The notes under the pieces are model-generated. The model worked only from the letters and a program-made list of their open reading frames with translations, searched no databases and was not told the origin of the DNA. The position numbers and the translations under genes are program-made. A stretch of 63,563 nucleotides of DNA, counting the filler, from Deltaproteobacteria bacterium (GTDB lineage: Bacteria > Myxococcota > JACRCW01): assembly GCA_016218805.1 (NCBI GenBank). It is 4 parts of 4 records of this genome, joined end to end, with 100 filler letters (N's around TTAATTAATTAA, not from the genome) between each part and the next. Parts side by side here need not be neighbours in the genome. Positions count along the whole stretch, not along the records: positions 1 to 25,465 come from JACRCW010000057.1; 3 more parts are not named here. One strand, written 5' to 3'. Of the stretch, positions 1 through 53,012 are shown in pieces. Position 1 is the stretch's first letter; each line of letters starts with the position of its first letter.

Positions 1-114
1 AACATTGTCAAGACCGATCCCAGCCGCACCCTGGGCGTCCCCAACACCCGCAAGCGTGCGGGCGGTGACCGCAAGTACTTGATTCACCTCATGACTGGAG
101 CCCTCATCATGTAA
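1..114 (+). CDS. 3' end of an unknown gene (partial, runs off window)
   Basis: Open frame 1 NIVKTDPSRTLGVPNTRKRAGGDRKYLIHLMTGALIM* with GC3-rich codons; stop at 112-114. Confidence 0.45.
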   Translation, partial: NIVKTDPSRTLGVPNTRKRAGGDRKYLIHLMTGALIM

Positions 115-287
115 GGCCTGTCAGAATGCGACCGCCCTGCCCTGGGGCGGAACACGTGACCGGGCATGGCGACCTCGTCCCGCACCGGCGTTTGGGTGAC
201 CGCGGAGACTGTCACACCGGCGTTGCGCCGATCGATGCACGGCGCTGTTGCGCCACCACGAACTCCACGGCCGCGCCCCGGTGTTCG

Positions 288-1028
288 TCAACCCAGCGGG
301 TGCGCAGGTGGCATCCCACCCGCGCGGAACAACGCGTCCAACTCCGCCAGTCCCGTCGGCGACCCAATCTCATAGAAACGCGTGCGCATCTCCAGCCCGG
401 CAACGCGCCCCTCCTCCGCCAACACGCGCAACACGTCCGCCAGATCGTGCGCGCCGGTTGCAGGAACCCGTTCCTCCACCACCGTGCGGCGTAGCGCCCC
501 CAGCCCGTAGTCCACGTGACGCATGCGCCCCCGCAACGCCTCCGGCCGGCGCTTGTCATAAGCAACCAGGCGCCCGTCTTCGAACACGACGTTGCTCGCG
601 TCCCAGCGGCCCTCATTGGGGAAGACGGTCATCAGCGCGGGAAGCGGTTGCGCGGTGAACGCCGCGTGCACCGCGGAGAAATCCACCGGCAGCCAACTGT
701 CTCCGTACGTGACCAGGAATGACGGCGCGAGCACGCCCGCATCCAGCGCGCAACGCAGCGCGCCCGCCGTCCCGCGCAGCGGTGTCCCCTCGTCCACCCA
801 GTGCACTGCCAACCCGAACCGCGACCCGTTGCCCACCGCATCACGGATCATCCCGCCGAGAAAACCGACGCACAGCACCGCGTCCGTCACGCCCGTGCGC
901 GCCATCCAGCGCAACTGGTGGTGCACAAACGGTTCCCCGCCCACCTCCAGCAGGCTCTTGGGCACCTTCTCCGTCAGCGGGCGCAGACGCGTGGCAAGCC
1001 CGCCGGCGAGGACGACGCACTGGACCAT
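288..1028 (-). CDS. Sugar-phosphate nucleotidyltransferase (NTP_transferase; HddC-like heptose-1-phosphate guanosyltransferase)
   Basis: N-terminal VVLAGGLATRLRPLT..PK.L motif, GTAGAL, FLVTYGD, FYEIGSP. Confidence 0.9.
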   Translation of the reverse strand: MVQCVVLAGGLATRLRPLTEKVPKSLLEVGGEPFVHHQLRWMARTGVTDAVLCVGFLGGMIRDAVGNGSRFGLAVHWVDEGTPLRGTAGALRCALDAGVLAPSFLVTYGDSWLPVDFSAVHAAFTAQPLPALMTVFPNEGRWDASNVVFEDGRLVAYDKRRPEALRGRMRHVDYGLGALRRTVVEERVPATGAHDLADVLRVLAEEGRVAGLEMRTRFYEIGSPTGLAELDALFRAGGMPPAHPLG

Positions 1029-1223
1029 GCCCGAGCGCCCTACCCGCCGAACCCGGTGGCCGCAAGGTGGCTGTCTTCGTCGCGTAGGGGGCGCTTTGGC
1101 GTCTCCACGGGAGGCGGCCCATGGAATCGCGGACTATCGCGAAGGACCCGCCGTGGCCATCAGGTCTACGCCCCGATTTCACGTGAATTGACCGTCGTCC
1201 GACCACGCCGACGTCCCGTGCGA
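930..1223. repeat. ~300-bp direct repeat, copy A (second copy 6016-6321)
   Basis: Near-identical to 6016-6321; contains the nucleotidyltransferase 5' end, its upstream region and the 3' tail of the 6232-7647 gene. Confidence 0.95.
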
Positions 1224-1534
1224 CACCCGTGGAGCTGATGATGCGGCTGGCGAGCCTGATCCCGGCGCCGGGCCGCCCGACGAGAAAGTACATTGGGATC
1301 CTGGCTCCGGCGCCCGTGACCGCAAGAACGTGGTGCCCTCCCCGACGCAGCGGAAGAACAAGCACTGCGACGACGAGGAACCGAAGGCGCCCGTGCACAG
1401 CGCCGTGACATGGGCCGAACTCCTCTAGCGCGTGTGCCATCGAGGACCCGGAGGAGATCGCGCGCTATCTGGAACGTACCGCGCAGACCACCGAGCACCC
1501 GCGCGCCATGGGGCCGCCGGACCTCGCCGCGTGA
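1224..1534 (+). pseudogene. C-terminal remnant of an IS91/ISCR-family (Y2 rolling-circle) transposase
   Basis: Across frameshifts it reads PVELMMRLASLIPAPGRPTRKYIGILAP / ..VTWAELL*RV / IEDPEEIARYL..HPRAMGPP*, matching the IS91-type C-terminal motifs PLEFLARLAALVP..RYHGVLAP, WARLLKRVF and IEDP..I..IL..ARAPP; has an internal stop and a deletion. Confidence 0.75.
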
Positions 1535-1734
1535 GCTCGACAAGGACCATTGACCACGTGGACCACCGGCCCGCGCAGGGTGTCGCTTGCCGAAGAGAGT
1601 GCCGCGGTGCCGGACTTTCGCCCCGGGATGGCCGATGCATGCATACCAACGCGTTTCCAGAAGGCCGGACAGGCGGCTCTTCGGGGCCGAAGGGTACGTG
1701 GTCAGCGGGTCACCCGGATGGGCTGCCTACCCGT
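1439..1734 (+). mobile_element. IS91-like 3' end / putative oriIS region, copy 1
   Basis: Repeated at 3557-3783 and 5285-5437; lies downstream of the transposase stop and ends at GGCTGCCTACCCGT. Confidence 0.65.
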
Positions 1735-1737
1735 GTC

Positions 1738-2153
1738 CAAGGCGGACATCAGCGGGCTCTTCGCCATGCAATATCTCGTCGACAAGGGGACGCTGCCCAA
1801 GAGCATCGAGACCACCATGTACACCACGTTTGTTTGCCAGCGCGTTCCGCACCATCCGCTTTGGCGTTGATGAGGCGCACGGCAAGGGCCAGGCGATGCA
1901 GCTCAACTACCTGCTGGACCAGGGCGCGTTCCGCGTAGCCAAGGACGGGACGTTCAGCGTGGATGGCAAGAAGATGAAGGCCGCCGCCAAGCAGCTCACC
2001 AAGGAGATCATGACGCTGCAGGCGGTGGGGAATTACGCCAAGGCCAAGGAGATGCTGGGCAAGCTGGGCATCATCCGCCCGGACACCGAAGATCCTGGAC
2101 CAGCGGAAGGATGTTCCTGCCGACGTGGCGCGGCGGTTTGTGACGGCGAATGA
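1738..2153 (+). pseudogene. C-terminal fragment of a peptidase M49 (dipeptidyl peptidase III-like)
   Basis: KADISGLFAMQYLVDKG..MYTTF / ASAFRTIRFGVDEAHGKGQAMQLNYLLDQG; 5' truncated at the repeat end; frameshift near 1833. Confidence 0.7.
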
Positions 2154-2216
2154 GCTGAGCAAGCAGTTTGCGCCTTGAGAAAGCGGGTGGGGCGCTGGGA
2201 TGTATCGACGTTGGCG

Positions 2217-3113
2217 ATGGAATCCACTACCGGTTCCACCAGGCGCCGAGTCCCGTTTTGTCTCCTTGCTCTTCTTCCGTTGGCCGTTGCTTGCAGCCAA
2301 CAAAGCGGCGGGCCAACCGTTTCAGAATCCGGTCCCGCCGGCCCCACCGGGGCCCAGGGACCCGTTGGCCCGACGGGAGCGCCGGGTCCACGCGGTCCGA
2401 CGGGAGAAGCTGGACCCATGGGGGCAACGGGTTCCGCGGGGCCTGTGGGTCCGCAGGGTCCGACGGGCATCGCTGGTGCACAGGGCTCGGTGGGACCCGC
2501 GGGGCCACAGGGCCCAGCCGGGGGCGAAGGACCCAGCGGTCCGCAAGGACCCATCGGCGCTCAAGGGCCTGCGGGTGTCACCGGTTCGCAAGGACCCACG
2601 GGCGCTGCGGGACCCGTTGGCATGCAAGGACCTCCCGGCCAACCAGGACCGCAGGGACCACCGGGCTCCGGGACGGGCCGGGTTGGCCTGTATGACGCCA
2701 ACAATGTGTACGTGGGGCCCTACGTTGTACTGCCCCTGCCACAACCTGGGGGACTCGCATATTTTGACCAGGGCCACATGTGGCGGATCGACCTCGATAC
2801 CGCGGCCCTTGGCAACCTCACCGGCAGAACCGTGTTCATGACCAATGACTGCACCGGAGAAGCCTATGTGCAGGTGGGGCCCGTGGTTGCGGGTGAAGCG
2901 TTCGCCATGGACATCCCCGTCGACGAATACCGGATTCGCGGAAGAGGCGCCCTCCCGCTCCCCACCACAAGCTACAACAGCTACACGTGGTCTTTGGGCT
3001 GCAACCAGGGCGGAGGGTCCGGCAGTCCGCTCTATCGCAAATCAGAGACCCAGCTTGTGAGCAGGCCAACCCTCACATTCCAAGCCCCGCTCCATATCGA
3101 GCAGATTCCTTAG
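2217..3113 (+). CDS. Collagen-like triple-helix repeat lipoprotein
   Basis: Signal/lipobox-like LLPLAVAC, 37 uninterrupted Gly-X-Y triplets, then a globular C-terminal domain; the ORF may start at 2175. Confidence 0.85.
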
Positions 3114-3144
3114 GGCGCGAGGGGCACTGGGCCACACCACCTTT

Positions 3145-3550
3145 TCAGGACCTTTTGCGGGTGCGCGGCGGCGTGAACACCGCCGCATCCGCGTTGCCGT
3201 CCCGGGAACGGTAGAACGCTCCGACGAGACCATGGTCCAGTCGCGCGCACATGGTCTAAACGGGCACAGCCGCGCCCCACCGCTGGCGGATGGCCGCAGC
3301 TGTGAACTGACGACGAAAGTGTTGCACGCCAGCACCGTCCCGCTGGAACCAAACAGCGCCACGCCATCCGCCCCCAACATGCCCTGGATGAGACGCGCGG
3401 TGGCCCGCAGATGCGCGCGGCTGGTTTCCCCCGGTTCCAACATTTACGCCGCACCTGCGCCGCCACATCCACCGGTTCATTGAACCGCACCCCGTCCGCA
3501 AACATCGACGGAATCTCACCGTTCAGAGGCACCACCGCGCGGCCAGTGTT
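3145..3550 (-). pseudogene. Frameshifted fragment resembling a DisA_N/diadenylate-cyclase-like domain
   Basis: Pieces in different frames: FADGVRFNEPVDV / LIQGMLGADGVALFGSSGTVLACNTFV..GGAR / AFYRSRDG; no intact ORF. Confidence 0.35.
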
Positions 3551-3556
3551 CGCGAT

Positions 3557-3783
3557 CGCCATCATCGATGACCCCGAGGAGATCGCGCGCTATCTGGGAC
3601 ACACAGATCACCGTGCACCCGCGCGCCATGGGGCCGCCGGACCTCGCCGCGTGAGCTCGACAAGGACCATTGACCACGTGGACCACCGGCCCGCGCAGGG
3701 TGTCGCTTGCCGAAGTGAGTGCCGCGATGCGGGATTTCCGCCCCGGGATGGCTGATGCACGCATACCAATGCGTTTCCAGAAA
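3557..3783 (+). mobile_element. IS91-like 3' end, copy 2 (lacks the terminal ~70 bp)
   Basis: AIIDDPEEIARYLGHT../HPRAMGPPDLAA* followed by the same non-coding tract as copy 1. Confidence 0.65.
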
Positions 3784-3893
3784 CGGCGTCATGCGTGCCG
3801 CCTCCGTGGGAGTCGCAGTGAACCCGTGGGACCTCGGCCCGCGGGTGAACGCAATCGGCCGCGGGGGACGACCTCGACGTCGCGTTGGTGTGC

Positions 3894-4748
3894 TCAGCGT
3901 TTGAGGCCGGCGGCCACGGCGTCCTTCAGCGTGGTGGTGGACCGTCCCGTGAGCGCATGCAGGCTGCCGGAGGTGTCATCCAGGGCGCCCTGGGCGGCGT
4001 GGACATCGGCGTCCACCAGGATTTCCGCAAACGGGCCAGGCAAACCCGCCCCGGCAAGAACCTTCAGGTACTCGGCGGGTGGCAGGTTGTTGTACACCAC
4101 GGGCTTGCCGGCCTGCCTGGCCACCTCGGCGGCCAGCTGCGCCATGGTGAACGGGTGGTCTCCCGCCAGCTCATAGGTCTTCCCGGCGTGACCATCGCCG
4201 ACGAGAACCGCCGCGTCTGCCGCGGCAAAGTCGGCCCGGGACGCCGAGGCAAACCGTCCTTCCCCGGCACTTCCCATCATGGCGCCGTATTGCAGCGCGG
4301 GCGCCAGGTTCTCGGTGTGGTTCTCCAGATACCAGCCGTGGCGCAACATGACCCAGGGCACACCGGACGCCTTGATCATCTCCTCGGTGGCCTTGTGTTC
4401 ACCCGCCAGCGCCATGCGGTTGGAGTCCGCCCGCAGGATGCTGGTGTACGCCAGCAGCTTCACCCCGGCCTTCTTGGCCGCGGCAATGACGCTCTGGTGG
4501 TGGCTGGCGCGTTGTCCCACCTCACTTGACGAGATGAGCAGCACCTTCTGGGCGCCGGCCAACGCCGCGTCCAACGTTGCGGGCCGGGTGTAGTCCGCCT
4601 CCTTGACCACCACCCCGCGGGCCGCAAGGTCCGCCGCCTTGGACGGAGTTCTCACCGCCGCGGTGATTTCTCCGGGTGCAACGGTCTTGAGCAGCTGTTC
4701 CACAACCAGACGTCCCAGCTTGCCGGTGGCTCCAGTGACAACAATCAT
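3894..4748 (-). CDS. qorB: NAD(P)H:quinone oxidoreductase, NmrA-like SDR (QorB/YtfG family)
   Basis: MIVVTGATGKLG, LLISSSEVGQR, LAYTSIL, LRHGWYLEN, YELAGD. Confidence 0.9.
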   Translation of the reverse strand: MIVVTGATGKLGRLVVEQLLKTVAPGEITAAVRTPSKAADLAARGVVVKEADYTRPATLDAALAGAQKVLLISSSEVGQRASHHQSVIAAAKKAGVKLLAYTSILRADSNRMALAGEHKATEEMIKASGVPWVMLRHGWYLENHTENLAPALQYGAMMGSAGEGRFASASRADFAAADAAVLVGDGHAGKTYELAGDHPFTMAQLAAEVARQAGKPVVYNNLPPAEYLKVLAGAGLPGPFAEILVDADVHAAQGALDDTSGSLHALTGRSTTTLKDAVAAGLKR

Positions 4749-4759
4749 GTGCGTCTCCT

Positions 4760-4849
4760 TGAAGGGTGATGGGGTCCGGGAGGACCAGGGCTTACAATAG
4801 GGCAGTTACTTTCCATTGGTAAGTACGCACTTTCTGGTAAGCTACGAAC
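4760..4849. promoter_or_regulatory. Divergent promoter region with probable HxlR operator
   Basis: AT-rich intergenic tract with HxlR-like dyads (GTTACTTTCCATTGGTAAG, GCACTTTCTGGTAAG) between the divergent pair. Confidence 0.45.
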
Positions 4850-5272
4850 ATGGCCCACACCGCCCGGAAGACCCCCGCCCCAGCCCGCCGTCTGGCCCTC
4901 ACCGGCGATCTCAACGCACCCGCCTGCCCGTCACGCGGCGTGCTGGACCACGTCACCAGCCGGTGGGGCGTGTTGATCCTGGTGGCGCTGACCGAGGGGA
5001 CCCACCGGTTCAGCCAGTTGCGCCGCAAGGTGGGCGGCGTTTCTGAAAAGATGCTGGCCCAGACGCTCCAGCTGTTGGAGGCAGATGGTTTTGTGACGCG
5101 CACGGTGCATCCGGTGATTCCCCCGCACGTGGACTACGCGCTCACGCCCTTGGGAGAGGAGGTTGCCCAGCGCGTGGGGGACCTGGCGGGATGGATTGAG
5201 GACAACCTGGGCCGCGTGATGGCCGCGCGCGAAAGGGTGGCACTGCGTGCACCCCGGCGCGCCCCGTCATGA
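4850..5272 (+). CDS. HxlR-family winged-HTH regulator (QorR/YtfH-like), divergent from qorB
   Basis: CPSRGVLDHVTSRWGVLIL..RFSQLRRKVGGVSEKMLAQTLQ.LE.DG..PPHVDYALTPLG. Confidence 0.92.
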   Translation: MAHTARKTPAPARRLALTGDLNAPACPSRGVLDHVTSRWGVLILVALTEGTHRFSQLRRKVGGVSEKMLAQTLQLLEADGFVTRTVHPVIPPHVDYALTPLGEEVAQRVGDLAGWIEDNLGRVMAARERVALRAPRRAPS

Positions 5273-5284
5273 TCAGACGTTGGC

Positions 5285-5437
5285 TCGCTTGCCGAAGAGA
5301 GTGCCGCGGTGCGGGATTTCCGCCCCGGGATGGCCGATGCATGCATACCAACGCGTTTCCGGAAGGCCGGACGGGCGGCTCTTCGGGGCCGAACGAGTGC
5401 GTGGTCAGCGGGTCACCCGGATGGGCTGCCTACCCGT
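5285..5437 (+). mobile_element. IS91-like 3' non-coding end, copy 3
   Basis: TCGCTTGCCGAAGAGAGTGCC...GGCTGCCTACCCGT matches ~1584-1734; similarity stops at the same point as copy 1. Confidence 0.65.
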
Positions 5438-5439
5438 TT

Positions 5440-6015
5440 TTTCCCCCGCGTTGGATGACAGCACCAACCCGGCCCGTTCAGGGATCGGTGGTCTCCGTTC
5501 CGCCAACAAAGTCCGCCAGCGGCACCTCGGACGACGAGACCAGCCCAGGTGTACGTCATGTTGGTCGACTCCTGGGCACAGGATGAATCGGTGGGCCCCT
5601 GGAGGGAGTACGCGGGCTGGTCGACCGATTGCCATGCCGCGTTGAACACGTGCTCGACGCGGGGGTGCCCCAGGGCGTCGGGGCGGGTGAGGAAGATGTA
5701 CGCCGCGTGGATGCGCTGTGACCCGAGGTAGTCGTAAAGCGTGTAAGGCGTGAAATCGTCCATGGCCGGCTGGCTGCAACTCGGGTCGGTGAAGGTCGCG
5801 TCGATCACGGACACGGGCATCGCGACGGCGGACTCGCCAAGCCGCAGTTCGGTCTGCCCAAGGGTTCCGCCCGGCGAGGGGTACACGGTCGGCAGGCAAC
5901 GCCAACCCTGCGTCGTGTTGACGAACGCGCAGTCCTCGTTGCGCTGTGTGTCCCGGTGGCCGAGGTAGCGCCGCGAGCCGTCCGTTCCCTGCACGTAGCG
6001 CGCGTGCGGCGCTGC
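5440..6015 (-). pseudogene. Fragment of a Cys-containing secreted myxobacterial-type protein
   Basis: ARYVQGTDGSRRYLGHRDTQRNEDCAF..WRCLP..FTDPSCSQP; has no start of its own and is fused in frame to the duplicated nucleotidyltransferase 5' piece. Confidence 0.45.
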
Positions 6016-6321
6016 CGGTTCCCCGCCCACCTCCAGCAGGCTCTTGGGCACCTTCGCCGTCAGCGGGCGCAGACGCGTGGCAAGCCCGCCCGGCGAGGAA
6101 CGACGCACTGGACCATGCCCGAGCGCCCTACCCGCCGAACCCGTTGGTCGCATGGTGGCTGTCTTCGTCGCGTAGGGGGCGCTTTGGCGTCTCCACGGGA
6201 GGGCGCGCAAGGCGGCCCATGGAATCGCGTACTATCGCGAAGGACCCGCCGTGGCCATCAGGTCTACGCCGCGATTTCCCGTGAATTGACCGTCGTCCGA
6301 CCACGCCGACGTCCCGTGCGA
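6016..6321. repeat. ~300-bp direct repeat, copy B, including a frameshifted 5' fragment of the nucleotidyltransferase
   Basis: Near-identical to 930-1223 with small indels. Confidence 0.95.
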
Positions 6322-7647
6322 GACCAGAGTGAGCGGTCCGGACTTGCCGGGCACCGTGAACCACAGCGCGGTATCGCGGTAGGAGAAGCGCCGGCCACCG
6401 GGCAACGGGGTGCGGCGCACTTCCGCTGACCACACCGTGCCGAAGGACGTCTTTCGTTCGTTGATTGAGACGTTTCCGTAACCATCTGATGCCGGCGGCG
6501 CGAGTCCGCTCTCCGAGAGGTGGACGCGCGCAAGGTCAACGGGTTCACCCGGCGCAGGCGCCGCTCCGGCGGCGATGGCGACCACGGTCTCAGACTCGCC
6601 GTGGAGGAGCACGGCGACGCCTGTCCACAGCACCAGGTCCGGGCGCGGCCGCTGGATCCGCAGCCAGCCCGTCGGCGGAACGTGCAGCGTGATGCCCAGG
6701 ACGTCGAGATCGCCGGAGAACGGGGCAAGCGAGCCGTCCGCGGGCAACACCGCGTCCAGGAGGCGGTCAAGCTCCAGGACTGCCTCCGGCCACCGGTGCG
6801 GGCGCCCCTGCACGACGACATTGACCTCCTGCTCTCCGAAACGACGACCCCGCGCACCAACGCGCTCGTTGCGGCGGGAACAGATGGACTTGTTGCCGGA
6901 GTACCCGCAGCGCGTTCCCGCACGCAGGCCGGCCACCCCCGCCACCGCCCACGCGGGTGGAGGCTGCACGCCACTCGGAACCTCGCCCGTGATGGCCGCG
7001 TTGAGATCCAGGTCCGGGTGGGCGAGCAGGATCACGTCGTCACGGGGCTGCGCAGTTGCCGCCGGGTGGACGAACCGCCAACCCGCGGGGAGGTGCACCC
7101 GCACCGCAAGCAGCGGGTGGATCCTCGGCCCCGTGTCGTCATCCAGGCGCGCACGCACCAGCGGATGGAGCGCCAGGGCCGGGTACTGCTCCACCAGGAC
7201 CGGCGCGGCAACCGGGAGGAGGGCGCTGGAAAGCATGACGGCGAGGTACGCCGAGGGGCGCACCCGGGACGCATCCCGCAGCAACCACGCCGTGCACGCC
7301 GACAGCACCAGCGCGGCGACGAACAGCGACGCACCTCCATCGGGCAGCCACAGCAACAGCGCCTGCCGCGCCACCAGCCAGCACGCCGCGGCCACGCGCC
7401 GCGCCTGCGCGGAGCCAGGGTGTGGCAGGAGCAGTCCCGCCGCGACAGCGAGGTCGACCGGAAGGTGGAGGAGCGCCGGCCTCAGTGGGCACTCGTCAAC
7501 CACCAGAGCGCCCGCGTGCGCCACGGGTACCAGCATCACGCCAACGGCCGCGAGTCGGAGACGCACGGCAGCCAGCATGGGATCGCCCGTGGCGTGGACG
7601 TGGTGCGGGGACGCGGGCTGGGCGGGCTGGGTCGTCGGGACCGGCAT
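6232..7647 (-). CDS. Hypothetical membrane protein
   Basis: 471-aa ORF with about four N-terminal hydrophobic segments and a soluble C-terminus. Confidence 0.55.
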   Translation of the reverse strand: MPVPTTQPAQPASPHHVHATGDPMLAAVRLRLAAVGVMLVPVAHAGALVVDECPLRPALLHLPVDLAVAAGLLLPHPGSAQARRVAAACWLVARQALLLWLPDGGASLFVAALVLSACTAWLLRDASRVRPSAYLAVMLSSALLPVAAPVLVEQYPALALHPLVRARLDDDTGPRIHPLLAVRVHLPAGWRFVHPAATAQPRDDVILLAHPDLDLNAAITGEVPSGVQPPPAWAVAGVAGLRAGTRCGYSGNKSICSRRNERVGARGRRFGEQEVNVVVQGRPHRWPEAVLELDRLLDAVLPADGSLAPFSGDLDVLGITLHVPPTGWLRIQRPRPDLVLWTGVAVLLHGESETVVAIAAGAAPAPGEPVDLARVHLSESGLAPPASDGYGNVSINERKTSFGTVWSAEVRRTPLPGGRRFSYRDTALWFTVPGKSGPLTLVSHGTSAWSDDGQFTGNRGVDLMATAGPSR

Positions 7648-7806
7648 CTGGGGCTCAACTTACGCCAGCGCGGCCGCGGCGTCCCGATGTCACCGCTGCT
7701 CGCGCGTGGAGGTCCCCGTGCTTACAGCAACAACGCGTGAGGGCCGTTGCCCCTTCCCCGCCGCACCCTTTGGCCGCATGGAGGCTCTCATTCTAGAGGA
7801 GCCGCC

Positions 7807-8214
7807 ATGAAGACCACCGTCACCTGGAACCAGAAGATGCAGTTCACCGCCACCGACGAGGCGGGCAACACCACGCCCATGGATGCGCAGCCCGAACACG
7901 GCGGCGAGGGCCACGGGCCAACGCCCAAGCAACTGGTGCTTGAGGGCCTGGCCGGCTGCACCGCCATGGACGTCATTGCCATCCTCAACAAGATGCGGTC
8001 ACCGCCGGTGGCGCTGCGCGTGGAGGCCAGCACCGAGATGACGGAGACCCACCCGAAGGTCTTCACCGCGATCCACCTGCGGTACGTCGTCAAGGGCGAC
8101 GTCCCGGTGGACAAGCTGGAGAAGGCCATCAAGATGAGCCAGGACACCTACTGCGGCGTGTCCGCCATGCTGCGGAAGGCCGCGCCCATCACGTGGGAGT
8201 ACGCGTTCGAGTGA
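7807..8214 (+). CDS. OsmC family protein
   Basis: GPTPKQLVLEGLAGCTAMDV..YCGVSAML; GAGGAG RBS upstream. Confidence 0.93.
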   Translation: MKTTVTWNQKMQFTATDEAGNTTPMDAQPEHGGEGHGPTPKQLVLEGLAGCTAMDVIAILNKMRSPPVALRVEASTEMTETHPKVFTAIHLRYVVKGDVPVDKLEKAIKMSQDTYCGVSAMLRKAAPITWEYAFE

Positions 8215-8259
8215 CGCGGCCGTTGCATCCGCACCGACGGCCGGGCTAGCCATGCTCCC

Positions 8260-9237
8260 ATGTCGTCGGGCGGCAGGTTCCTCATCGTCGGCGGCGCCGG
8301 CTTCATCGGCAGCCACTTCACTGATCACCTGCTGGGGCCGGGCGGCGCCGCCGGCGTGACGCTGTACGACAACTTCTCGTCCGGGAAGGAATGGCACTAC
8401 GCGCATCACGGCGCGGACGCGCGCCTGCGGGTGGTGCGTGCGGATGCCGCGGACCTGGACGCGCTGTGCGCCGCCATGACGGGCCATGACGTTGTCATCC
8501 ACCTGGCCTCCAACCCGGACATTGCCGCAGCCATGACGGACCCGGACATTGATTTCCGGCAGGGCACGGTCCTCACGCGCAACGTGGCGGAGGCCATGCG
8601 GCGCACCGGAACGCGGCGCATCCTGTACGCGTCCGGCAGTGGCATCTACGGGGACCTGGGCGAGCGCGAAGCGCACGAAGACCACGGCCCGCTCATCCCG
8701 GTGAGCCCGTACGGCGCCAGCAAGCTCGCCGGCGAAGCCCTGCTGTCGGCGTACGCGGCGATGTTTGACCTGCGCGCGGTGGTGTTCCGCTTCGGCAACG
8801 TCGTGGGCCCGCGGCAGACGCACGGCGTCGGGTTCGACTTCATCCGCCGGTTGCGGCAGGACCCCACGCGGCTGCGCATCCTGGGCGACGGGATGCAGTC
8901 CAAGAGCTACATCCACGTGTCTGACGTGGTGGCCGCGGTGCTGCTGGCCCACGCGCGGGTCACCGATCCGTTCCGCGCATTCAACGTGGCCACCGGGGAC
9001 TACATCACCGTGCGCGACATTGCGGAGGTGGCGGTGGAATGCGCGGGCCTCACGGCGGGCAGCGTGACCTATGAGCTTACCGGCGGGCGCGGCGGCTGGA
9101 AGGGGGACGTGCCGGTGATCCGCCTCAACACGGACCGCATCCGCGCTCTGGGTTGGACGTGCTCCCGCGGCTGCCGTGACGCGCTGCGTGACGCCATGAA
9201 CGCCATGCGCCGCGAATTGGACGAGGGACACGCATGA
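8260..9237 (+). CDS. NAD-dependent epimerase/dehydratase (UDP-glucose 4-epimerase-like)
   Basis: GGAGFIGSH, YGASK, FRFGNVVGP. Confidence 0.92.
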   Translation: MSSGGRFLIVGGAGFIGSHFTDHLLGPGGAAGVTLYDNFSSGKEWHYAHHGADARLRVVRADAADLDALCAAMTGHDVVIHLASNPDIAAAMTDPDIDFRQGTVLTRNVAEAMRRTGTRRILYASGSGIYGDLGEREAHEDHGPLIPVSPYGASKLAGEALLSAYAAMFDLRAVVFRFGNVVGPRQTHGVGFDFIRRLRQDPTRLRILGDGMQSKSYIHVSDVVAAVLLAHARVTDPFRAFNVATGDYITVRDIAEVAVECAGLTAGSVTYELTGGRGGWKGDVPVIRLNTDRIRALGWTCSRGCRDALRDAMNAMRRELDEGHA

Positions 9238-50370: not shown

Positions 50371-53012
50371 GCGGCCTGGAGGGCAGGCTGAAGGCGGGAT
50401 TTGCGCTTGCCCTGGTGCTGCTGGGAGTGGCCGGTTTCATCTCCGTGCAGGAGGTCAATCTGCTGGTGGACCGCCACGCGGACGCCACGCGTGCGCGCGC
50501 CGTGCGCACGGAGTTGGAAGAGACCATTGGGCTGGTGCTGGAATTGACCACCGCCGCGCGCGGGTACCTCCTCACCGGCGACGCGCTGTTCCAGCAGCAG
50601 CACGACTGGGCAGCGGCGCAGCTGGTGGAGCACCTTCGCCCGTTGGAGGCGCTGGTCCCGCAAGGGGACCAGCGTGCACGGCTGGTGCGGTTGCGGCCGT
50701 TGCTGGCTGAGCAGGCCGCGCAGGCCCGGGCGGACGTGGAGGCGCGCAACGCGGAGGGTGCGGGGGCGGTGGGGCGGTTGTTGGCGGCGGCCCCCGGTGA
50801 CAGCCCGCTGCCGCGCATCCGCGCGCTCATTGATGAGATGAAGGAAGCCCAGCTGCGCCTGTCCGACGAGCGCGAACGCGCCACGCGGGCGCAGGCGCGC
50901 CAGGCGCAGGCCGGCGCGGCACTGGCGGCGCTGCTGGGCCTGGTGCTGGTGGGCGTGCTGCTGCGGTTGCTGCTGGGTGAACTGGCGCACCGGCGGCGCA
51001 CGGAGCGGGAGGCGCTGCAGGCGCGCGCGTTCCTGGACGCGGTGGTGGCCAACATCCCGGACATGATCTTTGTGAAGGATGCACGGGACCTGCGCTTCAC
51101 GCTGTTCAACCGCGCGGGCGAGGAGCTGGTGGGGCACAAGCTGGCCGACATGGCGGGCAAGGACGTGTACGACCTGTTCCCCCGGGCGCAGGCGGACTTC
51201 TTCACGGCCAAGGACCGCGAGGTGCTGGCGGGCCGCACCACGGTGGACATCCCGGAGGAGCCGCTGGACACGCCGCGGGGCCGGCGGATTCTGCACACGC
51301 GCAAGGTCCCCCTGCGGGACGCCGCCGGGGAGCCGGCGTTCCTGCTGGGCATCTCCGAGGACATCACCGACCAGAAGGCGGCGCAGGAGGAGCGTGCGCG
51401 GTTGATTGCCATCATTGAGTCCAGCCCGGACATGGTGGGACTGGCCACGCCGGACGGGCAGGTGCGCTACGTCAACGCCGCCGGGCGGCGGCTGCTGGGG
51501 CTGGCGCCGGACGTGGAGCTGTCCGCCACCAGCCTGGCCGAGTACCTGCCGCCGGCCGGCCGGGAGGTGGTGCTGGGCAGGGGACTGCCGGCGGCCATCC
51601 GGGAGGGGGTGTGGCGTGGGGAGGCGCCCGTGCAGACGGTGGATGGCCGGGTGATCAGTTGCGCGCTGGTGCTGGCGGCGCACCGTAACGCGGTGGGCGA
51701 GGTGGAGTACGTCTCCGCCATCATCCGGGACATCACCGAGCAGAAGCAGTTTGAGCACGTGTTGGAGCAGCGCGTGGCGGAGCGCACGCGGGAGTTGCAG
51801 GCGGAGACGGAAGCGCGCCAGCAGGTGCAGCACCAGCTGGTGGAGTCCCAGAAGATGGAGGGGATTGGCCGGCTGGCCGGCGGGGTGGCGCATGACTTCA
51901 ACAACCTGCTCAGCGTGATCCTCTCCTACTCCGAGCTGCTGTTGGAGCAGGTGCGGCCCGGGGACCCCGCGCGCGAGGACATTGAGGCCATCCAGAAGGC
52001 GGGCAAACAGGCCGCCCGGCTGACGCAGCAGCTGCTGGCGTTCAGCCGCCGCCAGGTGCTGCAGGCGCGCGTGGTGGACCTCAACGAGGTGGTCACCGGC
52101 ATGGGCCGGATGGTGGGCCGGATCGTCGGCGAGGACGTGGAGGTGCGGGTGGCCACCGCGGCCACGGGGATGGTGCGGTGTGATTCGGGGCAGGTGGAGC
52201 AGGCGCTGCTGAACCTGGTGGTGAACTCACGGGACGCCATGCCCACGGGCGGGATGCTGACCATTGAGACCGCGGACGCGGTGCTGGACGCGTCCTACGC
52301 CGTCACCCACGCGGGCGTGGCGGCGGGGCCGTACGTCATGCTGGCGGTGAGTGACACGGGGACCGGGATGGACGCGGCCACGCTGGCGCGGGTGTTTGAG
52401 CCGTTCTTCACCACCAAGGAGAAGGGCAAGGGAACGGGGCTGGGGCTCAGCACGGCGTACGGGATTGTCAAGCAGAGCGGTGGGCACATCTTTGTCTACA
52501 GCGAGCCGGACCAGGGGACCACGTTCAAGATCTACCTGCCGCGGACCAGCGCCACGGACGCGGACCGGCCGGCGCCGGCCCGGCCGGGGGCGCGGCGCGG
52601 CACGGAGACGGTGCTGCTGGTGGAGGATGAGGAGCAGCTGCGGACGCTGGCGCGGGCCATCCTGCAGCGGCACGGCTACCGCGTGCTGGAAGCCAGCAAC
52701 GGCGGGGCGGCCCTGCTGCTGACCGAACAGCACGCCGACCCCATCCACCTGCTGCTCAGCGACGTGGTGATGCCCCAGATGAGCGGCAGCCAGCTGGCGG
52801 AGCGGCTGGGGAAGGTGCGGCCGGACATGCGGGTGCTGTTCACCTCCGGCTACACGGACGATGTGGTGGTCCACCACGGCGTGCTGCACCCGGACCTGGC
52901 CTTCCTGCAGAAGCCCTTCACGCCGGACGCGCTGGTGGCCAAGGTGCGCGAAGTGCTGGATGCGCCGGCCGGCCGGTTTGAGGCCGGAAGGCTCCCCCGG
53001 AAGTCCCCGTGA
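50367..53012 (+). CDS. Hybrid sensor kinase CHASE3-PAS-PAS-HisKA-HATPase-REC
   Basis: RGYLLTGD, two PAS domains, LAGGVAHDFNNLL, GTGLGL, VLLVEDE..SDVVMP..KPF. Confidence 0.95.
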   Translation: MSGLEGRLKAGFALALVLLGVAGFISVQEVNLLVDRHADATRARAVRTELEETIGLVLELTTAARGYLLTGDALFQQQHDWAAAQLVEHLRPLEALVPQGDQRARLVRLRPLLAEQAAQARADVEARNAEGAGAVGRLLAAAPGDSPLPRIRALIDEMKEAQLRLSDERERATRAQARQAQAGAALAALLGLVLVGVLLRLLLGELAHRRRTEREALQARAFLDAVVANIPDMIFVKDARDLRFTLFNRAGEELVGHKLADMAGKDVYDLFPRAQADFFTAKDREVLAGRTTVDIPEEPLDTPRGRRILHTRKVPLRDAAGEPAFLLGISEDITDQKAAQEERARLIAIIESSPDMVGLATPDGQVRYVNAAGRRLLGLAPDVELSATSLAEYLPPAGREVVLGRGLPAAIREGVWRGEAPVQTVDGRVISCALVLAAHRNAVGEVEYVSAIIRDITEQKQFEHVLEQRVAERTRELQAETEARQQVQHQLVESQKMEGIGRLAGGVAHDFNNLLSVILSYSELLLEQVRPGDPAREDIEAIQKAGKQAARLTQQLLAFSRRQVLQARVVDLNEVVTGMGRMVGRIVGEDVEVRVATAATGMVRCDSGQVEQALLNLVVNSRDAMPTGGMLTIETADAVLDASYAVTHAGVAAGPYVMLAVSDTGTGMDAATLARVFEPFFTTKEKGKGTGLGLSTAYGIVKQSGGHIFVYSEPDQGTTFKIYLPRTSATDADRPAPARPGARRGTETVLLVEDEEQLRTLARAILQRHGYRVLEASNGGAALLLTEQHADPIHLLLSDVVMPQMSGSQLAERLGKVRPDMRVLFTSGYTDDVVVHHGVLHPDLAFLQKPFTPDALVAKVREVLDAPAGRFEAGRLPRKSP

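Follow-up and report, generated by a model that had tools for sequence, protein, structure and literature searches.

How does a stretch of chromosome come to hold fragments of one insertion sequence (IS) alternating with unrelated genes, inside an otherwise native gene cluster? The question is raised by a patch of ~4.8 kb (positions 1228-6015) on contig C14 of a metagenome-assembled genome (MAG) of an uncultured groundwater myxobacterium, 92% complete in 170 contigs. The patch begins 1.2 kb from the contig start, lies within a sugar-nucleotide gene cluster, with a nucleotidyl-transferase gene on one side and that gene's upstream neighbour on the other, and has a GC content of 66.6% versus 70.2% for the genome; the window, that is the whole stretch of 63,563 nucleotides analysed, consists of several contigs linked by runs of N. 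A preliminary description proposed that three 3' ends of an IS91/ISCR-like element had acted here as a non-autonomous, Helitron-like site at which ori ends repeatedly deposited captured DNA. In this study, we find an ordinary kind of mobile-DNA scar, arranged as are ISCR arrays of resistance plasmids, and consider it, with a probability of about 0.5, to be the old and now immobile product of IS91-type one-ended transposition and homologous recombination. Its features are listed in Table 1.

Table 1. Features of the patch and its flanks, in order along the window
Feature	Position	Strand	Evidence or remark
Terminal 139 nt of a different multi-copy repeat	1-139	+	Matches the starts of 7 other contigs
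Intact nucleotidyl-transferase gene, native left flank	288-1028	-	PF00483, E 4.1e-15; PF12804, E 4.3e-11
A1, left copy of host repeat	930-1227		First 99 nt of transferase gene, intergenic DNA, relic of the 3' end (~31 codons) of the 471-aa gene
Remnant 1	1228-1734	+	Degenerate transposase C-terminal part, 200-nt 3' non-coding region, oriIS-type terminus ...CCTACCCGT
Dipeptidyl-peptidase III (DPP III, M49) C-terminal pseudogene fragment	1735-2170	+	Begins at the ori terminus
Intact collagen-repeat protein gene	2175-3113	+	PF01391, E 1.6e-16
Stretch without family or relative	3114-3540		'DAC-like' in the preliminary description
Remnant 2	3541-3782	+	Last transposase codons (frameshifted) and 130 nt of the 3' region; without terminus
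Intact NmrA-like / quinone-oxidoreductase-type SDR gene	3894-4748	-	PF13460 (NAD_binding_10), E 6.9e-23; PF05368, E 2.9e-18
Intact HxlR-family regulator gene	4850-5272	+	PF01638, E 2.3e-27
Remnant 3	5285-5437	+	153-nt right end with terminus; 94.8% identical to remnant 1 over 153
3' two-thirds of a gene of a ~240-aa family, N-terminal side cut by A2	5438-6015	-	phmmer
A2, right copy of host repeat	6016-6325		Transferase-gene part frameshifted; 471-aa-gene part in use
Intact 471-aa ORF, native right flank	6232-7647	-	No Pfam family

Three same-strand copies of one element, 91-95% alike, were recovered by repeat search and by blastn against the whole MAG, and the blastn E-values among them (1e-63 to 1e-86) rule out chance similarity. 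Seven intact homologous transposases (P0121-P0127) match window positions 1190-1531 in tblastn, the best alignment being that of P0121 residues 329-459 with remnant 1 (E 3.7e-13). P0121 carries PF14319 (Zn_Tnp_IS91) at residues 19-111 and PF04986 (Y2_Tnp) at residues 154-369, and the match overlaps only the last ~40 residues of the latter domain; hmmscan of the stop-free pieces of remnant 1 against Pfam gave no match. The Y2 similarity predicted for 1224-1534 was thus recovered by tblastn but not by Pfam profiles, and the transposase C-terminus reported for two copies is confirmed at the protein level for remnant 1, while for remnant 2 it is assigned solely by DNA homology to remnant 1. As judged from these alignments, the remnants belong to the IS91 family, in a subgroup that, at E <= 1e-20, is represented in 149 of 401 genomes from the phylum, a tally that includes one genome (G195) flagged as unpublished. 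All three copies are eroded. In remnant 1 the DNA-level unit comprises the full 297 nt (1438-1734) and protein homology extends left to 1228, through a coding part with a frameshift, an in-frame TAG and an internal deletion of ~60 nt that removed the CPxC motif. Remnant 2 is 91% identical to remnant 1 over 225 columns, its DNA homology (3563-3782) covering unit positions 1-220 only; its left limit is uncertain by ~20 nt, and the reading ...AIAIIDDPEE can be followed by eye back to ~3550. The remnants lie 5-9% apart, their closest relatives being each other and a copy on contig C129, a distance comparable to the 6.5% between A1 and A2. The window contains no catalytic transposase part, none of its remnants has a recognisable terIS-like left end or tetranucleotide, and the MAG, 92% complete, yielded no intact transposase of the subgroup. 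The remnants are non-autonomous, as had been proposed.

The right end of the element is fixed. Remnants 1 and 3 stop matching at the same point, ...GGGCTGCCTACCCGT, ~200 nt past the stop codon, in agreement with the preliminary description, while remnant 2 lacks the terminus, so that the three same-orientation copies include two true 3' ends and not three. Of six MAG copies that extend into the terminal region, four finish in ...CTACCCGT, a fifth has a 1-nt deletion there, and the sixth diverges ~9 nt earlier. The genome-wide survey bore out the shared end but yielded no intact donor in the MAG. In a same-family genome the element ends in ...TTCCTACCCGT ~210 nt after the stop codon, more distant relatives have ends of the ...CCTATACGC type, and relatives share the same motif type (CCTAT/CCTAC) 200-260 nt past the stop codon, which upholds the IS91-type 3' part with a CCTAT-like right end suggested earlier. 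Genome G162 contains two full-length copies, one of them a full element of 1921 bp, and two that are truncated at the 5' end (815 and 724 bp); all four stop matching at ...TACGCGT or ...TACACGT. A repeat search of window positions 1-9000 found no inverted-repeat pair joining remnant ends; the element has, then, an oriIS terminus downstream of its transposase gene, fixed among copies and without terminal inverted repeats. Past the shared end the copies read GTCCAAGG, TTTTTCC, TTCCACGG and TTCACCGG. CAAG stands beside the end only in copy 1, 3 nt beyond it, and the IS91 target tetranucleotide (GTTC/CTTG or GAAC/CAAG, given on opposite strands in two papers) is not evident; the final GT of the shared end could be part of a GTNN target. 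The sequence CGGGT-C-ACCCG, a short palindrome, occurs 20 nt from the end; folded as DNA, the last 115 nt are no stabler than shuffles (z -0.6 to +0.9).

The remnants do not qualify as Helitrons, eukaryotic rolling-circle transposons characterised by a Rep/helicase, 5'-TC ... CTRR-3' ends and a 3' hairpin: their protein relatives are IS91-type Y2 transposases without a helicase domain, and their ends are of the CCTAC/CCTAT type; the term Helitron-like applies only in a loose rolling-circle sense. The relatives share with IS91 of E. coli plasmids an HUH/Y2 transposase with a zinc-binding N-terminal domain, IS91 being further known by its distinct ori and ter ends and by rolling-circle and one-ended transposition. 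Unlike in IS91, no orf121 was seen, nor is the tetranucleotide target rule evident.

Cargo occupies two blocks between the remnants. Block 1 consists of the DPP III pseudogene fragment, the collagen-repeat gene and 0.4 kb without assigned family, block 2 of the NmrA-like gene, the HxlR gene and the 5'-cut gene, with remnant 3 standing between two convergent genes of block 2. Most of the identities first given to these segments held. The M49 peptidase fragment corresponds to residues 432-508 of 5zum_A (E 2.8e-20, phmmer against PDB); it changes frame near 1860, and its GC content of 61.7% is at the 1.5th percentile of 500-nt genome windows. The collagen, qorB (NmrA/NAD_binding_10) and HxlR genes have Pfam matches, and the putatively secreted protein fragment at 5438-6015 was likewise recognised as part of a real gene, its residues 5-152 matching residues 68-214 of a 239-aa homologue (P0253) at 45% identity (E 3.4e-31, phmmer against 1.84 billion representatives). 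Since this match starts at residue 68, ~60 N-terminal residues are missing. The 'DAC-like' label of 3114-3540 found no support, as nothing was matched in Pfam (E up to 10), PDB sequences or the ESM Atlas. The collagen-repeat protein has a predicted lipoprotein-like N-terminus, with a lipobox-like ...LAVAC recognised by eye, and among named relatives of the NmrA-like gene, with 63-69% identity, Myxococcota predominate. Neither blastn nor tblastn found a paralogue of any cargo segment elsewhere in the MAG, and the blocks are foreign-looking DNA. The patch ORFs scanned (with Pfam matches to collagen, NmrA-like and HxlR families) include no integrase, qacE/sul1 or resistance determinant.

Host DNA of ~300 bp, directly repeated, flanks the patch on both sides; its copies A1 and A2 are 93.5% identical over 310 columns and each run into an intact native gene on the outer side; the 471-aa ORF on the right was not found in the three nearest genomes. 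The preliminary description had missed this repeat. The duplication suggests that homologous recombination took part in the formation of the patch, in one step or more. A lower-GC block between direct repeats might also be a genomic island integrated by a site-specific recombinase, with A1 and A2 as its attachment-site repeats. However, 1228-6015 holds no integrase or recombinase ORF, the contig has no tRNA gene, and repeats of 300 bp that have diverged by 6.5% are far longer than usual att cores, which makes an island extremely improbable.

It is conceivable that no single 4.8-kb patch exists, and that loci from different places or co-existing strains were joined in assembly through the shared IS ends or the 40-nt start shared by A1 and A2. 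The MAG is in 170 contigs, and the contig ends in a repeat 1.2 kb away from the locus; in run X1 the depth falls to 3.4 in the A1 interior bin 1008-1211; A1-like letters occur within A2 in run X2 (6144, 6148 and 6153), as does an A1-like 10-nt deletion in run X3; and junction 5437/5438 has no bridge in the listed Logan contigs, X1 record 6 having only 30 nt on the IS side. Such a chimera is nevertheless very unlikely, as each of the other seven junctions, out of eight in all, is crossed by contigs with at least 31 letters on each side: 1227/8, ~3562/3, 3782/3, 5284/5 and 6325/6 in X1, 1734/5 in X2, and 6015/6016 in two runs (X2 record 15 and X3 record 24), with three of these junctions supported in a second or third run. 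The joint of A1 to the left flank (929/930) is present in Logan contig X4 record 26. Sequencing depth of non-repeat bins in X1 is the same for the patch (23.6-30.2) and the flanks (20.9-32), and divergence of 5-9% among the IS copies leaves them no shared exact words beyond a few tens of nt. Even were 5437/5438 false, the junctions of A1 to the IS and of the gene fragment to A2 are independently supported.

The order of the parts, namely host segment (A1), terIS-less IS with oriIS, cargo and second host segment (A2), is also found in complex class 1 integrons, where PMC3575428 describes a host segment, a terIS-less ISCR1 fused to it, oriIS, cargo and a second partial copy. ISCR arrays in which several IS copies alternate with cargo are explained, in PMC7707992 and PMC3575428, by circular intermediates and homologous recombination. 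As in the ISCR1-linked integrons, a host segment is duplicated around a terIS-less IS with cargo, and the oriIS region is ~200 nt long (232 bp in ISCR1, an element itself never shown to transpose; PMC6218425). On the other hand, the IS copies are short degenerate remnants instead of whole genes, ordinary chromosomal DNA makes up the duplicated segment, and the host is an environmental myxobacterium; with no integron and no integrase, qacE/sul1 or resistance gene among the scanned ORFs, the patch is thus array-like but not a member of the ISCR1 class 1 integrons. The original model for ISCR arrays is reportedly that of Toleman et al. 2006. For the present patch, we propose that IS91-type one-ended rolling-circle events would have generated the 5'-truncated right ends and joined the IS to neighbouring DNA, that a circle carrying the 300-bp host segment would then have entered the chromosome by homologous recombination, duplicating the segment, and that point mutations, frameshifts and deletions would since have eroded everything not under selection.

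One-ended transposition in the IS91 family carries DNA that lies upstream, beyond terIS and not beyond oriIS, according to PMC13181058 and PMC3189936, and on that basis DNA that adjoins an ori end would be either the site of insertion or the opposite end of a circular intermediate. The idea of ori ends repeatedly depositing captured DNA is thus not supported, and remnant 2 has no ori end. For IS801 of Pseudomonas syringae, PMC3189936 reports right-end miniatures of 229, 360 and 679 nt and, in experiments, the transport of 290-1431 nt of upstream DNA by one-ended transposition, a range with which the 298 nt of A1 directly upstream of remnant 1 may be compared. Like those of IS801, the present fragments are right ends of a few hundred nt with an ori terminus and no left end, beside unrelated genes or gene fragments; the right end is intact in remnants 1 and 3 and absent from remnant 2. 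They differ from IS801 in belonging to another transposase subgroup (~460 aa, with a C-terminal CPxC ... PPDLAA tail), found in Myxococcota, in having no intact copy in the present MAG, and in showing no verifiable left-end tetranucleotide, the mark by which true one-ended products of IS801 are told.

Most genomic fragments of IS801 were judged, in PMC3189936, to be products of reorganisation and not of one-ended transposition, and the same caution applies here. Independent full-length IS91-family insertions may have lost their left parts by later deletion (remnant 2 its right end too), with recombination between copies shuffling neighbouring DNA in, an unrelated recombination event causing the 300-bp duplication, and no DNA ever carried by rolling-circle read-through. 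We regard this ordinary decay as a real though less than even possibility. Every kind of fragment occurs in the MAG, including those without a right end (remnant 2 on C14, copies on C124 and C165, transposase pieces on C89, C143, C78 and C104), thus erosion from both sides clearly happens; contig C89 holds at 45-51 kb a second mosaic of the same ingredients; and the left break points are unequal between copies (~residues 342, 388, 405-412, 420-428, and in the 3' region). Yet decay would require a large number of independent deletions, all of them with an end point in the final ~500 nt of the element, and seven copies break within a span of ~40 codons, unlike random deletion. It is also at odds with the truncated copies of G162, which again keep exactly the right end, and leaves unexplained a 300-bp flanking duplication of which each copy runs into a native gene. 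As to direct traces of one-ended transposition and recombination, no intact donor element, empty site or circle junction came to light, with 0 matches in two metagenome scans and one genome-collection DNA scan; of the checks first suggested, comparison with relatives revealed no synteny with the locus in the three nearest genomes, and the search for circular junctions found no joint in Logan contigs.

The origin of remnant 3 deserves separate consideration. Over its first 30 nt it is 100% identical to the stretch leading into a transposase fragment on C89, and it starts with CTCGCTTGCCG, a string also found immediately ahead of the transposase start both on C89 and in G001, where it is preceded by GAACG.G, which is absent before remnant 3; in a same-family genome the same 11-mer occurs 8 nt ahead of the transposase start codon. 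The sequence around the transposase start recurs as a ~35-nt copy in the 3' non-coding region of the element, an arrangement that to our knowledge has not been described for IS91. Remnant 3 is thus possibly a left-end/right-end miniature, or may perhaps be a simple small insertion between two convergent genes. It seems unlikely, however, that remnant 3 (~5273-5437) is a natural miniature of this IS91 subgroup formed by recombination between the ~35-nt start-region sequence and its 3' direct copy, one that could still be mobilised in trans and take along upstream genes, in this case hxlR and the NmrA-like gene. In IS91 itself short end segments, 89 bp on the left and 82 bp on the right, suffice in cis (PMC13181058). 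Were the miniature mobile, Myxococcota would have ISCR-like gene shuffling by ori-bearing miniatures, unrelated to antibiotic resistance; otherwise the locus leaves the known mechanism unchanged.

The locus modestly adds another case to the known IS91/ISCR-type mosaics. It places an ISCR1-type layout in an uncultured myxobacterium from groundwater, on the chromosome and remote from clinical plasmids, and the subgroup leaves 5'-truncated right ends in the two Myxococcota genomes examined (the present MAG and G162). Such remnants escape ORF-based pipelines and Pfam, and mark pseudogene junctions and likely break points of MAG contigs. The repeat at the left end of the window is 98-100% identical to the first 139-151 nt of seven other contigs of the MAG, in every case at the contig start and in one orientation, and is probably another IS end.

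Contig C14 (window 1-25465) carries the patch between window positions 1228 and 6015, at 1.2 kb from the contig start; the patch is enclosed by two direct repeats, A1 (930-1227) and A2 (6016-6325), neither of which had been mentioned in the preliminary description. Repeat search and blastn showed 93.5% identity over 310 columns, with a 10-nt indel. The repeated segment comprises the first 99 nt of a nucleotidyl-transferase gene (288-1028, minus strand), the intergenic region and the final ~31 codons of a 471-aa ORF. A1 runs on into the intact transferase gene and A2 into the intact 471-aa ORF, and decay is found in the redundant half of each copy, the transferase start region of A2 carrying two 1-nt insertions. 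Since each copy is continuous with a native gene and the redundant halves have decayed, the patch has the appearance of a 4.8-kb insertion that duplicated 300 bp of its target. OsmC, epimerase, GHMP-kinase and GT2 genes follow to the right, which makes the native site a sugar-nucleotide cluster. Transferase relatives in the three nearest genomes were only 30-39% identical and the 471-aa protein had no relative there, which permitted no synteny comparison. The 471-aa ORF itself (6232-7647, minus strand) has no Pfam family; in its stretch, with 75% G+C, AT skew reaches an unusual +0.53.

Repeats within the patch were sought in window 1-9000 and by blastn against the metagenome-assembled genome (MAG). 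Both returned three plus-strand copies of one unit (see table), so the earlier observation was largely right; of the three element ends then counted only two are true ends, because copy 2 lacks the last 77 nt of the unit. The shared match of copies 1 and 3 stops at ...GGGCTGCCTACCCGT. Blastn placed the unit at seven more sites elsewhere in the MAG. Among the six copies extending to the terminal region, four stop at ...CTACCCGT and then enter unrelated flanks, the copy on contig C17 reaches the same end with a 1-nt deletion, and the C89 copy at 50756-51044 departs from the others ~9 nt before the shared terminus; a fixed end common to the genome-wide copies, as had been predicted, was thus found. 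The nearest relatives among the copies are the three remnants mutually (91-95%), together with the C129 copy. Against 41 genomes including the MAG itself, real matches of the unit DNA were restricted to the MAG, and a 25-nt match in another genome, G023 (E 4.6e-4), was taken as chance. The exact 23-nt ori pattern gave 0 matches in genome contigs and 0 in metagenome contigs, and the exact 22-nt right-flank pattern 0 in metagenome contigs, so that neither a donor element nor another context or an empty site came out of these scans. Folding of the terminal DNA was indistinguishable from that of shuffled sequence.

Features of the patch and of related sites (window positions unless a contig is named)
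Feature	Position	Strand	Remarks
Copy 1	1438-1734	+	297-nt unit
Copy 2	3563-3782	+	91% to copy 1, 225 columns; unit positions 1-220
Copy 3	5285-5437	+	94.8% to copy 1, 153 columns; unit positions 146-297
Near-full-length unit copies outside window	C129 2052-2348; C89 45072-45374; C89 50756-51044; C17 64480-64764		
Short unit pieces outside window (n=3)	C124; C165; C89 47633-47667		
C89 mosaic, right-end remnants	C89 45072-45374; 50756-51044		
C89 mosaic, transposase piece	C89 47604-48409		residues ~37-315
~35-nt block / 11-mer CTCGCTTGCCG	1583-1617; 3703-3737; 5285-5319; C89 47631-47667; L016 (G001) near 2448-2458		
Dipeptidyl-peptidase III (DPP III), last ~100-140 codons	1735-2170		frame change; 5zum_A residues 432-508, E 2.8e-20
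Collagen-repeat gene, intact	2175-3113		PF01391
NmrA/NAD_binding_10 gene	3894-4748	-	Pfam
HxlR gene	4850-5272		Pfam
N-terminally cut gene	5438-6015	-	residues 68-214 of a 239-aa protein, E 3.4e-31
N-joined contig boundaries	25466-25565; 53162-53261; 61819-61918		each two 44-nt N runs around 12 letters

The assignment of the repeat to the IS91 family proved correct by homology with intact relatives carrying Zn_Tnp_IS91 and Y2_Tnp. The tBLASTn or HMM search proposed earlier for copy 1 succeeded in part: Pfam gave no match on the stop-free pieces of remnant 1 (1228-1734), whose homology was detected only via intact relatives. A PF04986 profile search of the MAG returned three partial matches, on C165, C89 and C143. 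The N-terminal ORF on C165 was rejected as a reference, as 8 of its 120 listed homologues used in tblastn matched only C165; this transposase belongs to another IS91 subgroup and has no bearing on the repeat. The C89 transposase fragment led to 11 longer relatives, seven of which were used in tblastn and matched window 1190-1531, best among them the intact 459-aa transposase P0121 (E 3.7e-13 for residues 329-459). Of this alignment the first ~38 nt lie within A1 and are probably overhang, so that real homology would begin near 1228. In P0121 the Zn_Tnp_IS91 and Y2_Tnp domains occupy residues 19-111 and 154-369, thus remnant 1 encodes the non-catalytic tail only, and the catalytic part is absent from the window. 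Read against the copy alignment, the coding part of remnant 1 shows an in-frame TAG, a frameshift and the loss of ~60 nt including the CPxC motif. Elsewhere in the MAG P0121-type proteins match fragments only (C89 residues 37-315, C143, C78 residues 5-141, C104), and tblastn with the seven relatives found no intact transposase of the repeat's subgroup in the assembly. Of the 401 genomes sampled from the phylum, 149 have P0121-like genes (E <= 1e-20, the tally including the unpublished genome G195).

On the 3' side of the stop codon the relatives' DNA is not alignable to the MAG element, and an end motif of the same kind stands at the same distance: the element of the same-family genome G001 has ...TTCCTACCCGT ~210 nt past the stop, versus 200 nt in the window, and more distant elements have ...CCTATACGC and similar. 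Another genome, G162, holds a 1921-bp element, its extent defined by a second full-length copy, together with two 5'-truncated copies of 815 and 724 bp, and all of these stop matching at ...TACGCGT or ...TACACGT. The repeat and its relatives share the IS91-family architecture, which passages of PMC13181058 describe as ori and ter ends that differ from each other, transposition by a rolling circle and insertion without target duplication; the ISCR1 oriIS region is given as 232 bp in a passage of PMC6218425. The object falls among known IS91/ISCR-type remnants and mosaics.

As to the cargo, the M49 fragment, the collagen-like gene and the qorB/HxlR pair described earlier were borne out by 5zum_A and Pfam, the qorB gene as NmrA-like, and a supposed DAC-like fragment at 3114-3540 was dropped, having no match in Pfam (E up to 10), PDB sequences or the ESM Atlas. 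The DPP III piece starts right at the ori terminus, and the gene at 5438-6015 is truncated at 6015, towards its N-terminus, and faces remnant 3 with its 3' end and the DNA downstream of it; the genes at the junctions are pseudogenes. The product of 5416-6015 had no usable match in the ESM Atlas. No second copy or paralogue of the cargo segments was found in the MAG. G+C content is 70.2% in the MAG, 66.6% in the patch and 61.7% in the DPP III piece, the 1.5th percentile of 500-nt genome windows. The protein P0133, encoded on an 8-kb public contig, is 89% identical to the NmrA-like cargo protein, the best relative in the same-family genome is only 38% identical, and at least 80 loci carry relatives with 51-65% identity. 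Named relatives of one cargo gene come from Myxococcus, Pyxidicoccus, Archangium and Anaeromyxobacter; given these names and the 9-13-Mb genomes in its phylum, the MAG is taken to be myxobacterial.

The order at the locus is host segment, IS remnant without left end, oriIS, cargo and second host segment. For ISCR1-linked class 1 integrons a model has been proposed, the original paper reportedly being that of Toleman et al. 2006. The same element order has been reported in these integrons (in a passage of PMC3575428), and the accepted model, as summarized in part of PMC7707992, is a circular intermediate rescued via homologous recombination in a shared segment. According to passages of PMC13181058 and PMC3189936, replication of IS91-family elements starts at oriIS and passes through the element, failed termination carrying DNA upstream of the left end and an early stop yielding right-end miniatures; for IS801 a section of PMC3189936 gives miniatures of 229, 360 and 679 nt and recruited upstream DNA of 290-1431 nt. 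Rolling-circle events of this kind would fit the 5'-truncated copies, whose right ends are intact both in this MAG and in G162; upstream carriage would fit A1 directly upstream of remnant 1; and a circle with one copy of A, integrating by homologous recombination, would best explain the 300-bp duplication. We infer such a combined history, one-ended rolling-circle events plus circle integration, with a probability of about 0.5. The accretion mechanism proposed earlier is supported only in part: deposition of cargo beyond oriIS does not fit, DNA there being either the target or the far end of a circle. The circle junctions that had been suggested as evidence, and any joint marking an empty site, were absent from the Logan contigs of four runs, contigs that drop rare variants. 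The main rival, in which independent insertions were followed by deletions and IS-mediated recombination, is favoured by the many MAG fragments without right ends and by the published verdict on IS801 fragments. Against it speak the flanking duplication and the fact that seven break points fall within ~40 codons of one another; we consider it possible, with some doubt. A tRNA-linked island was discarded, no tRNA gene being found on C14, and a recombinase-type island is judged highly improbable.

The MAG (170 contigs, 6.43 Mb, 92% complete, 1.2% contamination) contributes C14, C15 and parts of C19 and C145 to the window, concatenated and not one molecule, so that features are not readable across the N-joined boundaries. 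The stretch is present in four public runs (X1-X4), all of them groundwater metagenomes from one study, whose Logan contigs were compared with window 600-6700; a junction counted as bridged when a contig had 31 letters to either side of it. Depths in X1, probably the source sample, are 23.6-30.2 in non-repeat bins of the patch, 20.9-32 in the flanks and 3.4 in bin 1008-1211; the higher depth of IS bins (46-98) is as expected for a repeat. Bridges were found at 1227/8, ~3562/3 and 6325/6 (X1), 3782/3 and 5284/5 (X1, X3), 6015/6 (X2, X3) and 1734/5 (X2 only). Junction 5437/8 had none among the Logan pieces listed, X1 record 6 beginning 30 nt inside the IS; this junction and the uncovered parts count neither way. 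Eight contigs start with the same 139-151 nt, suggesting assembler words of ~141 nt, and with such words the 5437/8 join would need real reads, because within 140 nt of this junction copy 3 differs from all other copies. Misassembly as the source of the mosaic is judged improbable. In A2, A1-like letters in X2 (6144, 6148, 6153) and an A1-like 10-nt deletion in X3 (window 6200) suggest exchange or gene conversion between A1 and A2, or strain variation. One X3 contig tracks the transferase gene to 1010 and continues into 255 nt of unrelated sequence, which could be another arrangement in a minor strain or a relative's gene.

At its left edge remnant 3 matches C89 47631-47660 with 100% identity over 30 nt (from 5283), and this C89 stretch leads directly into the transposase fragment, whose Zn domain begins only at profile position 39. 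In G001 the 11-mer CTCGCTTGCCG stands 8 nt before the GTG start of a homologue reading VPHRVRHRPQDTVL, where P0121 reads VPDTRIRHQPEKTVL. In full copies the same ~35 nt lie in the 3' non-coding region, preceded by GTCG, GACG or ACCG, not CTCG. Since the ~35 nt at the transposase start recur there, the element appears, judged from sequence, to carry in its 3' region a direct repeat of its own 5' start region, possibly a binding site common to both ends. Remnant 3 has the 5'-type version (CTCG), thus it may be a left-end/right-end miniature formed by recombination between the two versions, not by mere truncation. If it entered as a small unit by simple insertion between hxlR and the convergent gene at 5438-6015, then 3783-6015 would be one DNA block, not two cargos. 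The 11-mer match alone had an E of 1.4 in the search that found it; given its place just before the transposase start, chance is by a rough estimate very unlikely, but we treat the match as a lead. A short-word comparison of the unit with the region upstream of the C78 fragment and the G162 left end gave nothing beyond chance.

A second mosaic of the same element occupies C89 45000-51229 (L009, L034, L007) and ends at the contig end. The N-terminal ~55 residues of its transposase piece are missing or replaced, an unrelated 777-codon reverse-strand open frame and a small secreted-looking ORF lie between its parts, and a putative serine-recombinase N-terminus was noted by eye. On C165 (24200-25741, L001) a 322-codon ORF, judged by eye a putative tyrosine recombinase, stands immediately before the N-terminal half of the other-subgroup transposase (PF14319, E 3.5e-29), both on one strand, and a 79-nt piece of the studied repeat lies 1.2 kb downstream. 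At the start of C14 (window 1-139) the first 139-151 nt are common, at 98-100% identity and in one orientation throughout, to the starts of C14, C170, C153, C95, C34, C133, C105 and C93, each of which enters different DNA past ...GACCGCCCTG. The shared stretch probably represents one end of a further high-copy IS that was collapsed in assembly; the transferase gene would then have a second mobile element at a distance of 150 bp.
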